The notes under the pieces were generated by a model. That model saw nothing but the letters and a program-made list of their open reading frames with translations. It did not search any database and was not told the DNA's origin. The translations under genes were made by a program, and so were the position numbers. Below, in pieces: positions 1,087-34,662 of a stretch of 37,324 nucleotides of DNA; positions within the stretch are counted from its first letter, which is position 1; every line of letters begins with the position of its first letter. Source of the stretch: Candidatus Micrarchaeota archaeon (GTDB lineage: Archaea; Micrarchaeota; Micrarchaeia; CAILAH01); NCBI GenBank assembly GCA_964401875.1, contig CAYOAB010000002.1:1-37324 (forward strand). Reading direction: 5' to 3'.

Positions 1087-1300
1087 ATGGGTGAGCTTTC
1101 CGCCCTGTTTATTCGTTCACGAATAAACACGCCCTTCGGCTCTGCCGAAGTAACGCCTTCAAACCCCGGTAATGCTCAAACGACAAAGTCGTTTGGCATG
1201 CCTCTTTTCCGTAGGAAAAGGACACACCATCCACTACGTGGATACGTGTGCCGCAAACGCAAAGCGTTTGCCCGCATTTTGCCTCCGTGAGGCAAAATTG
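1087..1300. ncRNA. Unclassified GC-rich structured element with seven consecutive perfect stem-loops (candidate novel ncRNA or DNA-level hairpin array)
   Basis: Hairpins by hand folding are listed here.
- HP1 1106-1129: 10 bp, loop ttca.
- HP2 1134-1150: cttcggc/gccgaag, loop tct.
- HP3 1177-1195: caaacgac/gtcgtttg, loop aaa.
- HP4 1204-1220: cttttcc/ggaaaag, loop gta.
- HP5 1223-1250: cacac+atccac / gtggat+gtgtg, 1x2 internal loop, loop tac.
- HP6 1253-1271: gcaaacgc/gcgtttgc, loop aaa.
- HP7 1276-1298: attttgcctc/gaggcaaaat, loop cgt.
GC content is far above the flanks. I recognised no known RNA family motif. Confidence 0.5.
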
Positions 1301-1327
1301 AAAATAATAAAAACAATTTTGTAAAAT

Positions 1328-1334
1328 AAAAAAA
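1328..1334 (-). terminator. Oligo-T (T7) archaeal-type terminator just downstream of RNase P RNA
   Basis: The plus-strand A7 run at 1328-1334 is T7 on the minus strand. It begins 4 nt after the predicted RNase P RNA 3' end at 1338. Confidence 0.45.
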
Positions 1335-1337
1335 TAT

Positions 1338-1642
1338 AAGAAGGGTGATAGGCCACCTTTTGTTTAACTAGAAAAAATTTCTTTCCCCTAGGGCTTTCTT
1401 TAGGATGTGAACCGAAGGTTCAACCGAAAGAAAGGGCTAACAGCATTGATCTAAGCGCTTTAAGCTTGCACAATCATTACCTTGTACAGGGGCCGTTTCA
1501 TCCTTTTCATTTCCAACGTCATATAAAATCATTCTAAGAATGAAAGGTATCGTTTCTGTATCCCCATATTTCCTTAAGAAACACAAAGTTCATTGTGGGC
1601 GGACCTTCCTCCGGAGTACCCGGTGAGCTGTCTTCCCTTCTT
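1338..1642 (-). ncRNA. rnpB: RNase P RNA (archaeal type-A-like)
   Basis: The minus-strand RNA starts AAGAAGGGAAGACAGCUCACC...CCGGAGGAAGGUCCGCCC (CR-I, GGAGGAAaGUCC-like). It continues ...GGGGAUACAGAAACGAUACC (ACAGAAA motif) and ...GAUGAAACGGCCCCUGUACAAGG...UAGAUCAAUGCUG..., ending ...CACCCUUCUU. The terminal 8-bp P1 pairs AAGAAGGG (1642-1635) with CCCUUCUU (1345-1338). It is a GC-rich island of about 305 nt in AT-rich DNA. Confidence 0.85.
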
Positions 1643-2722: not shown

Positions 2723-2785
2723 AATGTAATTTAATCGTAAATTAATAAAAATAAATAAAAACTTATACATTCTAATTAAGCTTAA

Positions 2786-2965
2786 GCTGAGGTAGCCAAG
2801 TGGTTAAGGCGCTAGACTGCTAATCTAGTGGGCCCTGCCCGCGTGGGTTCAAGCACTGCGGATGAGGGGGAGACCCCCTCCTCCCCGTGTGTTCTGCCCC
2901 ACCACCCCGTGCGGTGGCGATAGAACATTAACTTTGTTAACTACCTAAAAATCCCATCCTCAGCG
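2786..2965 (+). tRNA. tRNA-Ser (anticodon GCT) with a long variable arm and a ~98-nt insertion in the T-loop
   Basis: Hand-folded cloverleaf, element by element.
- Acceptor gctgagg (2786-2792) pairs with cctcagc (2958-2964); discriminator is g2965.
- D-arm is gcc-aagtggttaa-ggc.
- Anticodon stem is ctaga/tctag with loop ctGCTaa (anticodon 2819-2821).
- Variable arm is gggc-cct-gccc.
- T-stem gtggg (2843-2847) pairs with cccat (2953-2957).
- T-loop ttcaa...at is split by 2853-2950.
No CCA is encoded, and a T5 run follows. Confidence 0.8.
2853..2950 (+). other. Candidate non-canonical tRNA intron in the T-loop (about position 58/59) of tRNA-Ser(GCU)
   Basis: The intron is inferred because the flanking exons complete a perfect T-stem and acceptor stem. 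The insert is GC-rich and self-structured, for example gaggggg-aga-ccccctc at 2864-2880. The boundaries are ambiguous by +/-2 nt because of flanking A residues. I could not confirm a bulge-helix-bulge motif by eye. Confidence 0.55.
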
Positions 2966-2966
2966 C

Positions 2967-2971
2967 TTTTT
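2967..2971 (+). terminator. Oligo-T tract after tRNA-Ser
   Basis: A ttttt run immediately follows the discriminator plus one nucleotide. Confidence 0.4.
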
Positions 2972-3000
2972 CTTATTATTAATATCAATTTAATGTTAAT

Positions 3001-3008
3001 TATAAAAT
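3001..3008 (+). promoter_or_regulatory. Candidate TATA box upstream of the free-standing structured RNA
   Basis: tataaaat at 3001-3008 lies about 20-25 nt upstream of the first base of the closing helix at 3022-3031. Confidence 0.35.
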
Positions 3009-3021
3009 GGTCAGAGGGTTA

Positions 3022-3137
3022 GCGCAGGGTTAAGGGACGCGAAGTCCCTTCCCGTCCTGCAGGGGCGGAACCTTCCAAAACGAAGTTTTGGAATGGTGCC
3101 ATATACTTTAGTATATGAGAACCCTGCTCCTCAGCGC
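3022..3137 (+). ncRNA. Unclassified ~115-nt GC-rich structured RNA, paralogue-like to the tRNA-Ser intron plus 3' exon tail
   Basis: - The closing helix pairs gcagggtt (3024-3031) with aaccctgc (3120-3127).
- Internal hairpins are aagggac-gcgaa-gtccctt (3032-3050), ttccaaaac-gaa-gttttggaa (3073-3093) and atatac-ttta-gtatat (3101-3116).
- The element ends in tcctcagcgc followed by T8, identical over 15 nt to the end of the tRNA-Ser gene.
I recognised no cloverleaf, 5S, SRP or C/D-box pattern. Confidence 0.5.
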
Positions 3138-3145
3138 TTTTTTTT
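3138..3145 (+). terminator. Oligo-T (T8) terminator after the structured RNA
   Basis: A tttttttt run lies at 3138-3145. Confidence 0.45.
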
Positions 3146-3150
3146 ATATA

Positions 3151-4494
3151 TTATTTTTTCTTCTGTAAATTGAGAATAGTTTCAACAACTACACTTAGTC
3201 CTGCACCCGTTGGCCCAAAACTAAATGGTGAATTCCCTTTTGTGTGCGCAGTTCCTGCAATGTCTAAATGTACCCATTTAGTTTTTCCAACAAAATTTGA
3301 AAGGAACGCAGCGGCCGTAATTGTTCCCGCTTCACCAGTTTCTGAACTATTCTTAATGTCTGCAAATTTACCTTTCATTAATTCAACATACTCTTCCGTT
3401 AAAGGTAATTGCCATACCTGGTCATAACTTTTCTTTGAACTTTCATTAATTAAGTCAATGAACTCCTTATCATTTCCAAGTATAGCAATGTGATAACTTC
3501 CAAGTGCAACTGTAACTGCACCAGTTAATGTAGCCAAATCAATAACATAATCAGGTTTATACTTTTCAATCCCATATGCTAAAGCGTCCGCTAAAATCAT
3601 TCTACCTTCCGCGTCCGTGTTTAATATTTCAATTGTTTTACCATTATATGCAGTAACAACATCTCCTGGCCTTGTAGCGTTACCACTTGGCATATTTTCA
3701 CATAAAGGCATAACACCAATCACATTAATCTCCGGTTCAATTTCTGCAATCGCTCTTATAATTCCCATTGTTGTAATAGCACCGCTCTTATCATATTTCA
3801 TTTCTTCCATTCCCTTTGAAGGTTTAAGTGAAATCCCACCACTATCAAAAGTAATTCCCTTTCCCACAATCAAGATTGTTTTTTTTGCTTTTTTGTGTGT
3901 ATATTTAATTATGGGCATTACAGGTTCATTGTAACTTCCCTTAGCAACGGACATGAACGCGTTCATCTCTAAATCATGAATCTGTTGAAAATCAATACAT
4001 TCATATTTCAAGTTCCATTCCTTTGCCATTTTTTTAACTTCTTCATTTATGTATGAAGGTGTAGCAATATTTCCCGGAAGTAAATTTATTTCTCTAACAT
4101 AATTAACAGAATCACCTAATATACTTGCCTTTGAAAGTTCTGGAAATTGTCTTTTATCTGCCCACAAATAAATTTTATTTTCATTTTTTTCTTCTTCCTT
4201 TTCACTCTTCAAATTTTTAATTTCATTTTCAGATAAAATCAAATAATAAAATATATATGATGCTATTCCATCATCAAATCCCTTAACATCTATAATTATA
4301 TCTTTTTTCAAATTCTTACCGAAACTTATTACATTTTGAAGTATTTTTTTAATTGAATTATTTGTAACCTTTTCTTTTCCCAGGTTACAGGTTATAATAT
4401 CTTCTTTGTAACTTATTTCTCCCACTTTCTCTTTCTTATTAAATTCAATTTTAATAGCGTTTTTAATTTCCTTTTCAGTTATTTCAATTTGCAT
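3151..4494 (-). CDS. pepA: Leucyl aminopeptidase, M17 family
   Basis: 447 aa. It carries the M17 signature NTDAEGRMILADAL, VGKGITFDSGGISLKP and DLATLTGA. Confidence 0.9.
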   Translation of the reverse strand: MQIEITEKEIKNAIKIEFNKKEKVGEISYKEDIITCNLGKEKVTNNSIKKILQNVISFGKNLKKDIIIDVKGFDDGIASYIFYYLILSENEIKNLKSEKEEEKNENKIYLWADKRQFPELSKASILGDSVNYVREINLLPGNIATPSYINEEVKKMAKEWNLKYECIDFQQIHDLEMNAFMSVAKGSYNEPVMPIIKYTHKKAKKTILIVGKGITFDSGGISLKPSKGMEEMKYDKSGAITTMGIIRAIAEIEPEINVIGVMPLCENMPSGNATRPGDVVTAYNGKTIEILNTDAEGRMILADALAYGIEKYKPDYVIDLATLTGAVTVALGSYHIAILGNDKEFIDLINESSKKSYDQVWQLPLTEEYVELMKGKFADIKNSSETGEAGTITAAAFLSNFVGKTKWVHLDIAGTAHTKGNSPFSFGPTGAGLSVVVETILNLQKKK

Positions 4495-34545: not shown

Positions 34546-34567
34546 CATTTTGATTAATAAGAGGATA

Positions 34568-34639
34568 TGGACTTGCCGGGGATCGAACCCGGAGTCTCTA
34601 CCTTGCGAAGGTAGCGTCATACCATTAGACCACAAGCCC
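34568..34639 (-). tRNA. tRNA-Ala (anticodon CGC)
   Basis: The reverse complement is GGGCTTG-TG-GTCTAATGGTATGAC-G-CTACC-TTCGCAA-GGTAG-AGACT-CCGGG-TTCGATC-CCCGG-CAAGTCC-A. The cloverleaf is perfect with a G3:U70 alanine identity pair. There is no intron and no encoded CCA. Confidence 0.9.
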
Positions 34640-34662
34640 ACTATTATGTTAAAGTGAACTAA

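Follow-up and report, generated by a model that had tools for sequence, protein, structure and literature searches.

tRNA-Ser(GCU) Gene and Its Intron

The DNA analyzed here, referred to below as the window, is a stretch of 37,324 nt that makes up contig C2 of an 854-kb assembly (118 contigs, 84% complete, ~30% G+C). Near its 5' end, the forward strand carries a class II tRNA-Ser(GCU) gene that is interrupted in the T-loop, followed directly by a likely archaeal terminator and then by a second GC-rich element. The features of the locus are listed in Table 1. The CCA end is not encoded in exon 2. The 3' end of the gene, together with the T-run, is the first copy of a 15-nt direct repeat that recurs behind the second element. 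The window also contains an intact, intron-less tRNA-Ala(CGC), which is among the few uninterrupted tRNA genes in the assembly.

Table 1. Features of the tRNA-Ser(GCU) locus and the other elements discussed; positions are those of the window, and a slash marks a cut site
Feature	Position	Strand	Sequence or content	Basis
tRNA-Ser(GCU) gene, interrupted	2786–2965	+		Direct reading, Rfam, ARAGORN
Exon 1	2786–2853	+	tRNA positions 1–59	Rfam tRNA match; ARAGORN on spliced forms; direct reading
Acceptor stem, 5' strand	2786–2792	+	GCUGAGG; D-arm follows	
Anticodon stem-loop	2812–2828	+	CUAGA-CUGCUAA-UCUAG; anticodon GCT at 2819–2821	
Long variable arm	2829–2842	+	Class II tRNA	
T-stem, 5' strand	2843–2847	+	GUGGG	
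T-loop	2848–2853	+	UUCAAG	
Central helix, 5' strand	2848–2851	+	U54 U55 C56 A57; pairs with 2946–2949 (UAAA)	3 of 4 pairs
5' bulge	2852–2854	+	A58 G59 / C(i1); cassette helix P1 directly after	BHB rule
Intron	2854–2951	+	98 nt, T-loop position 59/60	In silico splicing; BHB geometry with T-stem as outer helix
Module A copy	2854–2919	+		Covariance model R1, 77.3 bits
Helix P1	2854–2856 with 2889–2891	+		
Homopurine arm R1	2860–2870	+	Loop at 2871–2873	
Pyrimidine arm Y1	2874–2884	+		
Linker	2885–2896	+	Contains P1 3' strand	
C-rich tail	2897–2908	+	CCCCACCACCCC, then GUGCGGUGGCG	Candidate Hoogsteen (third) strand
Copy-specific 3' part of intron	2920–2945	+		
Small AU hairpin	2928–2940	+	UUAAC-UUU-GUUAA	
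Intron 3' end and 3' bulge	2946–2952	+	UAAA, then A2950 A2951 / U2952 (U60)	Adjoins T-stem
Exon 2	2952–2965	+	U60 (2952); T-stem 3' strand CCCAU (2953–2957); acceptor 3' strand CCUCAGC (2958–2964); discriminator G (2965)	Direct reading; ARAGORN; 12-mer search
T-run, likely archaeal terminator	2966–2971	+	CTTTTT	Directly 3' of discriminator base
15-nt direct repeat	2957–2971 and 3128–3142		TCCTCAGCGCTTTTT; tRNA 3' end and T-run	
Module B	3010–3137 (region 2972–3127)		Conserved core ...CCCGTCCTGCAGGGGCGGAACCCTGC	
59-nt unit	3064–3122			
51-nt insert	3068–3118		CTTCCAAAACGAAG...GAGAAC	
tRNA-Ala(CGC)	34567–34640	-	Intact, no intron	

Without splicing, ARAGORN missed the tRNA-Ser(GCU) gene, and the Rfam tRNA model matched positions 2786–2855 at 33.1 bits, above its cut-off but with a false 3' end forced on the match. 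All combinations of exon ends were then joined in silico, and the maximum score came from four equivalent junctions that restore a 7-nt T-loop (2850/2949 to 2853/2952). The intron-free joint between 2853 and 2952 is recognized by ARAGORN as tRNA-Ser(gct), with all arms restored and a score of 120.9, which lies at the top of the range found for the other tRNAs of this genome (107–121). The 12-mer CCCATCCTCAGC, which comprises the 3' strands of the T-stem and the acceptor stem, occurs once in the 37-kb window, at 2953–2964, against a chance expectation of 0.10. These results bear out the proposal of the initial annotation that a tRNA-Ser(GCU) is interrupted in its T-loop by ~98 nt. The length of 98 nt stands, but the span moves by one base, from 2853–2950 (position 58/59) in the earlier reading to 2854–2951 here; this boundary is uncertain by 1 nt, since one A may belong to either side. 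As initially described, the intron is GC-rich, and the 180-nt precursor folds better than shuffled sequences (z = -3.8).

The gene appears to have no substitute in this assembly. When both strands were searched for YU-GCU-RN flanked by 5-bp stems, one credible GCU anticodon arm emerged in the whole assembly, that of the gene at 2786–2965, and neither Rfam nor ARAGORN found a further tRNA-Ser(GCU). The intact second copy that the initial annotation had considered as a sign of a pseudogene was thus looked for in three ways in the 84%-complete assembly, and none was present. Because this arm is the only one and AGU and AGC account for 33% of the Ser codons (21.9 per 1000 in 302 long ORFs), the gene is needed, with the qualification that 16% of the genome is missing. 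Only 15 tRNA genes were found by ARAGORN with its intron option and 12 above threshold by the Rfam tRNA model, and most tRNA genes of the assembly are therefore disrupted. It follows for genomes of this kind that most tRNA genes escape the standard tRNA finders.

Near-identical DNA is present in metagenomes from activated sludge, landfill, wastewater, and groundwater, and the host is therefore a mesophile and not a hyperthermophile. It is a mesophilic DPANN archaeon, of the Micrarchaeota type as judged by its splicing endonuclease (see below).

We consider it highly probable that positions 2786–2965 represent a working, single-copy tRNA-Ser(GCU) gene with a 98-nt intron that is spliced out between positions 59 and 60. 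From the exon ends and the junction geometry, we infer the exact cut sites and that splicing takes place. None of the public RNA runs searched contains the gene sequence, and its coverage was zero in four metatranscriptomes.

Splice Junctions and Splicing Enzymes

[quoted passage not shown] In the tRNA-Ser(GCU) precursor, the central helix is formed by U2848:A2949, U2849:A2948, and A2851:U2946 and is disturbed by a C2850·A2947 mismatch. A contiguous inner helix (h') was looked for at the junctions and was absent; instead, the local hairpin P1/P2 of the cassette described below follows the 5' site. A splice motif can nevertheless be drawn, a point on which the earlier reading had been made to depend: the T-stem, the AA/U bulge, and the UUCA:UAAA helix with three of four pairs would constitute a junction of the relaxed hBH class, at the relaxed end of its range. 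The fold that combines the cloverleaf with this motif has a calculated energy of -61.2 kcal/mol, 11 kcal/mol above the nearest-neighbour minimum (-72.0 kcal/mol); nearest-neighbour folding commonly disfavors the cloverleaf of tRNAs, and the difference is not decisive.

The 3' strand of the central helix is found in the same place in orthologues, where it reads UGAA, UAAA, GGAA, or UGGG. The 3' end of the intron, CCUAAAAAU, is also present in the orthologous introns of genomes G025 and G148. The intron end CCUAAAAA/U, which the present intron shares with G025 and G148, is mostly dictated by the motif, and little weight is attached to it.

An ORF of at least 385 residues on contig C74 aligns over residues 11–385 (E = 4e-118) with PDB entry 4fz2, which we take to be the three-unit epsilon2 endonuclease of ARMAN-2, the database title being only "tRNA intron endonuclease." Pfam identifies in it two stretches of the catalytic domain (PF01974) and one N-terminal domain (PF02778). 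Inspection of the EndA type, on which the initial annotation had also touched, thus points to an enzyme of the epsilon2 type, which would be tolerant of relaxed motifs. In vitro, the epsilon2 enzyme of ARMAN-2 cleaves a relaxed hBH intron at 59/60 as well as a strict BHB at 37/38 (PMC3239211). An RtcB ligase is encoded at C48:1776–3086 (578 bits to PF01139).

A second ORF with a possible relationship to the endonuclease was observed on the reverse strand of contig C1 (19200–20294; L015:1474–2568). It encodes 364 residues, of which the N-terminal part is a HAD-family phosphatase domain (PF13419, E = 6e-36), and the C-terminal part falls just below threshold for the catalytic domain of tRNA-intron endonucleases (22.7 bits versus 27). 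The product may be a fusion that serves in RNA-end processing, or it may be a degenerate structural unit of EndA.

Orthologous Genes and Natural Populations

Of 401 genomes of the class that were searched with a pattern for the Ser(GCU) anticodon arm, ~40 contain an orthologue. Introns at 59/60 of tRNA-Ser(GCU), with lengths of 32–105 nt, were identified in seven other genomes from sister genera and other families. (i) Three genomes of genus g4 in the same family, G003, G007, and G005, have introns of 87, 44, and 105 nt, respectively; that of G003 has a strict hBHBh' motif with a UUCA:UGAA central helix, bulges AA/U and UC/U, and a 7-bp inner helix. (ii) In family f13, G025 and G080 have introns of 62 and 67 nt. 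(iii) In family f8, G015 and G148 have introns of 32 and 37 nt. The site is unoccupied in G001, G002, G004, and G008 of the same family and in the sampled genomes of family f15, and the parse of an insert in G190 (family f32) is unreliable. This distribution suggests that the 59/60 site of tRNA-Ser(GCU) has been occupied recurrently or since ancient times and that the content of the intron is lineage-specific. The view that T-loop introns are linked mainly to Thermoproteales and are usually short, which had been taken initially as a reason for interest, does not hold for this gene, since 59/60 introns are known in Micrarchaeota, a length of 44–105 nt is the rule for tRNA-Ser(GCU) in the family, and the host is mesophilic. 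The intron is an ordinary member of the Micrarchaeota 59/60 introns, and its length is normal for this gene in the family.

The intron-bearing gene, with unchanged exons, was recovered on contigs from four independent metagenomes (sludge, two landfills, and groundwater), and no intron-less exon joint was present among the contigs of these four. In one diverged strain, both flanks have accumulated substitutions and indels, and the intron differs only by a 1-nt deletion in a G-run. The intron is fixed in the natural populations represented by the four metagenomes.

Multi-copy Cassette in the Intron

Two-thirds of the intron (2854–2919) is a copy of a 64-nt repeated cassette with ~20 copies per genome, designated module A; BLAST searches against the genome matched the initial ~65 nt of the intron to many contigs. 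The covariance model R1, built from 11 copies, gave 20 matches in this genome and matches in eight of the nine genomes of the order, with no match in 142 other genomes of the class at E <= 1e-4, and by this distribution the cassette appears to be order-specific. With regard to the initial suggestion that the intron may encode a stable RNA, the structured part is a multi-copy cassette and not an intron-specific gene. Rfam searches of positions 2750–3160, at the gathering threshold and at E <= 10, returned only the tRNA and a noise match to snoU82P (E = 3.7, 10.4 bits). Box C/D, H/ACA, and K-turn readings of module A were rejected on inspection, which revealed no conserved boxes and no tandem G·A pairs. 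Module A has no Rfam family and no description in the literature cited here, and it is new relative to the known 59/60 introns.

In this genome, copies of module A occupy four kinds of site. (i) They stand at the start of 37/38 introns in tRNA-Gly(GCC), Asn(GUU), Arg(UCU), Arg(CCU), Arg(GCG), and Ala(UGC). (ii) They stand at the start of 59/60 introns in tRNA-Ser(GCU), Arg(GCG), a tRNA on contig C12, two tRNAs on C3 and C34, and two headless tRNA-Gly 3' halves. (iii) They lie one base past the discriminator in tRNA-Met, Leu(GAG), and Leu(CAA). (iv) They are free-standing on C98, C32, C26, and C42, where they are flanked by 12–45-nt direct repeats of the target. Counted by eye across the family, ~33 copies are in the sense orientation relative to the host tRNA and three are antisense. 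All sense copies begin 0–2 nt past the 5' cut with their CAC end toward the splice site; antisense copies have the same end (CAC/GTG) next to the 3' splice site. Most closely related to the tRNA-Ser copy is the 59/60 intron of tRNA-Arg(GCG) on C48 (85% identity over 79 nt), which has a perfect UGAA central helix.

Several loci carry more than one cassette. The tRNA-Arg(GCG) gene on C48 (30–330, reverse strand) has two cassette introns, a truncated variant 2 at 37/38 and a variant 1 at 59/60, and RtcB is encoded 1.5 kb away. The tRNA-Ala(UGC) gene on C25 (~1150–1400, reverse strand) also has two introns; that at 37/38 starts with cassette variant 2 (CACUGAUGGA...UCUACACCC), and that at 59/60 has a strict BHB with a UUCA:UGAA helix and bulges AAA and UUU. 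A single 59/60 intron in genome G006 (L063:1501–1632) contains two cassettes head to head, a sense variant 1 at the 5' site and an antisense variant 2 at the 3' site. At C3:16400–16600, C34:7000–7160, C1:1121–1218, and C1:1456–1553, copies are split between linker and tail by a structured insert of ~60–100 nt (TCATTCGGCAAAGCCGAATGG...GTGAGC), and there are therefore cassettes nested within cassettes.

In a rival reading, the tRNA-Ser gene is a pseudogene, in which a mobile repeat entered the T-loop and is not spliced, the AGY codons being read by a gene in the missing 16% of the genome. Such an origin would agree with the presence of the multi-copy cassette outside tRNA genes with target duplications, with the imperfect splice motif (the C·A mismatch and the lack of a contiguous h'), and with an assembly that is 84% complete. 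However, both exons are intact with every feature of a tRNA-Ser, diverged strains with variable flanks show at most one indel in exons and intron, and seven other genomes have introns at the same site, one of them with a strict BHB. Moreover, more than 10 other tRNA genes of this genome carry module A, and all of these would be dead. We regard a pseudogene as improbable.

There is very little likelihood that the segment is removed by another route, either by group I or II self-splicing or by a self-cleaving ribozyme that cuts its own 5' end. The start of the cassette is always exactly at the cut site, as in HDV-like and hatchet ribozymes, but helix P1 has only 3 bp, inspection revealed no nested HDV-type pseudoknot, and there is no Rfam match to such ribozymes. 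Likewise, no group I or II core was detected in the Rfam search described above, the segment is far too short for an intron of either group, and the 3' junction is a textbook helix-bulge adjoining the T-stem.

Second Cassette Behind the Gene

The GC-rich element that follows the tRNA-Ser(GCU) gene, module B, is bracketed by the two copies of the 15-nt duplication of the tRNA 3' end and T-run. Its core is also present on contigs C1, C3, C22, C38, C41 (twice), C42, C105, and C113, with a different 3' sequence in each case; on C1 this is a tRNA-Gly 3' half. The 51-nt insert nested in module B is absent from one groundwater-metagenome contig, in which position 3067 is joined to 3119. The 59-nt unit that covers this insert recurs on C63, C77, and C36 and looks like a third cassette, polymorphic between strains. 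Trans-pairing of the tRNA-Ser copy of module A (GUUCUGCCCC) with the second cassette at 3010–3137 (GGGGCGGAAC), in the style of a split tRNA, was rejected because the two complementary stretches do not stand in the order that a single duplex requires and because GUUC has an unconserved U. The 15-nt repeat behind the second element and the headless tRNA-Gly 3' halves on C1 could be taken to mean that exon 1 is joined to the second 3' end at 3128–3137 or to a 3' piece elsewhere, but this is most improbable: CCTGC, which precedes the second copy, is unable to pair with GUGGG, the 5' strand of the T-stem; with the first copy, T-stem and acceptor stem are both perfect in cis; the second element represents another cassette and has a target duplication on either side; and 98 nt separate the two exons, which are located in cis with a single AT-rich region upstream and a single T-run behind exon 2.

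Splicing of an intron at 59/60 in cis is the preferred reading, and the following course of processing is proposed. The T-stem GUGGG/CCCAU, the bulge A A/U60, and the helix UUCA:UAAA would form a relaxed hBH motif. The 5' cut, A58 G59/C, would fall two bases beyond the UUCA:UAAA helix, and the cassette hairpin P1/P2 directly after it may, speculatively, replace the missing inner helix. A homodimeric three-unit epsilon2 endonuclease would then cut after G2853 and after A2951, RtcB would ligate the exons, and CCA would be added subsequently.

Anatomy of Module A

The structure of the cassette was deduced from an alignment (A2) of 51 copies. Helix P1 is CAC:GUG and co-varies to UAC:GUA and CGG:CCG. 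It is followed by an internal loop, by helix P2 of 9–11 bp, by the conserved linker GUGUGNUCUGC (UCUAC in the second variant), and by the C-rich tail. Double changes occur in 11 of the 12 modelled pairs, and 93% of the cells are paired as compared with 83.6% in shuffled alignments and at most 78% when the partners are slid. The pairs of P2 are only G-C, A-U, and G-U with the purine on the 5' strand (one U-A and no C-G), and no pair is ever flipped. RNAalifold proposes a long-range helix, GCGGA:UCUGC, whose columns are invariant and which is in competition with the lower portion of P2, itself well supported. In many copies the tail can also form a hairpin with downstream GGUGG-like purines; different parts of the tail are used in different copies, the hairpins are not treated as homologous, and they may represent an alternative fold.

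The tail has no usual antiparallel complement anywhere. Instead, it is the parallel complement of the homopurine arm and hence the mirror image of the pyrimidine arm; in the window copy, arm GGAUGAGGGGG stands against tail CCACCACCCC. Other copies have arms AGAGGGGGA, GAAAGGGGG, GAGGGGAGA, and GGAGGGGA with tails UUCUCCCCCU, CCUAUCCCCC, CCUCCCCUCU, and CCUCCCCU, respectively, and there are more than 12 distinct arm patterns, each with a matching tail. In 35 non-redundant copies, G in the arm corresponds to C in the tail at 219 of 224 positions, and A corresponds to U at 49, to A at 29, and to another base at 3 of 81 positions. Arms and their own tails score 507 as compared with 401 ± 13 for swapped partners (0 of 20,000 swaps as high), and with one representative of each of 25 distinct arms the scores are 351 and 271 ± 11 (0 of 50,000); since the copies share ancestry, these frequencies are not probabilities. 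An antiparallel arrangement of tail and purine arm was rejected, the reversed tail scoring 285 versus 351. A G-quadruplex or i-motif as the cause of the C and G runs was also rejected, since variants such as AGAGGGGGA/UUCUCCCCCU still obey the mirror rule although they contain just two long runs.

By the classification of Hoyne/Maher and Holder et al. (PMC4666352), a purine arm with a Watson-Crick pyrimidine arm and a parallel C/U strand corresponds to a class III (Y-motif) intrastrand triplex, and the complementary strand corresponds to class I, the purine motif, with G·G-C and A·A-T or T·A-T triples. The Y motif is able to form in RNA and the purine motif is not (PMC4666352). The ambiguity between U and A at the A positions fits the purine motif of the other strand (~97% allowed) better than the Y motif in the RNA sense (~88%). 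The strong bias toward the sense orientation in tRNA genes argues for a fold at the RNA level. A triplex rich in C+·G-C requires protonation of cytosine, which is a real objection at neutral pH. We propose tentatively, and rate at somewhat below an even chance, that module A is a selected natural intramolecular triplex. In the RNA sense it would comprise ~10 consecutive C+·G-C/U·A-U major-groove triples, and the other strand would adopt the purine motif as single-stranded DNA; located within 0–2 nt of the 5' cut in more than 12 tRNA precursors per genome, the rigid element might act as a substitute for the inner helix, through which the epsilon2 endonuclease would accept BHB motifs that are otherwise incomplete, or as a nuclease-resistant cap that would stabilize the excised intron RNA, and it would be a unit copied to the ends of RNA genes. 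A keyword search of one recent review of RNA triple helices (PMC13541005) gave no example of a natural triplex within an intron of a tRNA.

Should the fold exist, sites of RNA processing would carry a natural triple helix that is long and G/C-rich, and the gain and turnover of tRNA introns in DPANN archaea would be tied to a mobile cassette defined by its structure. By itself, the intron is a further well-supported case of a long intron at 59/60, here in an essential tRNA encoded by a single gene in a host of the Micrarchaeota type that has an epsilon2 endonuclease.

Comparison with Known Systems

The closest parallel is the pre-tRNA-Cys(GCA) of ARMAN-2 (Candidatus Micrarchaeum acidiphilum), in which the epsilon2 endonuclease removes a 59/60 intron with a relaxed hBH motif (Fujishima et al. 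2011, PMC3239211). The two introns share the position and the architecture of the endonuclease and would share the arrangement of T-stem, one bulge, 4-position helix, and loop, and in both organisms many tRNA genes are disrupted (56% in ARMAN-2, PMC3239211). They differ in the tRNA concerned and in length (98 nt here versus 13 nt), and the present intron consists mostly of a repeated structured cassette. ARMAN-2 is from acid mine drainage, whereas the present host is a mesophile of neutral-pH habitats (sludge, landfill, and groundwater).

In Thermoproteales, Fujishima et al. in 2010 reportedly described transposed BHB introns, near-identical introns being present in different tRNA genes and positions of one genome. 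The 59/60 introns of tRNA-Ser and tRNA-Arg(GCG), with the identity given above, resemble these. In contrast to the Thermoproteales introns, the unit here is also found in tRNA 3' trailers and free-standing with target duplications, is occasionally reversed, and follows a three-segment triplex rule.

A structured RNA inside a tRNA intron has a precedent in Haloferax, where the tRNA-Trp intron carries a box C/D RNA. By analogy, module A might be released by the tRNA splicing machinery, but unlike the Haloferax RNA it has no C/D or H/ACA boxes, no Rfam match, and no identified target complementarity.

We know of no sequence similarity between module A and the BoxC, PIT, and TMECO repeats. The latter are intergenic intrastrand-triplex repeats of Enterobacteria and Cyanobacteria that are discussed as purine-motif DNA elements (Holder et al. 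2015, PMC4666352). Like them, module A is a short, multi-copy, G/C-rich element in which a homopurine block and its complementary pyrimidine block are joined by another block that follows a triplex rule, and it occurs at rearranged and variable loci. In contrast to them, it is archaeal, its pattern would correspond to class III on the RNA-sense strand and class I on the other, and it is located precisely at RNA processing sites.
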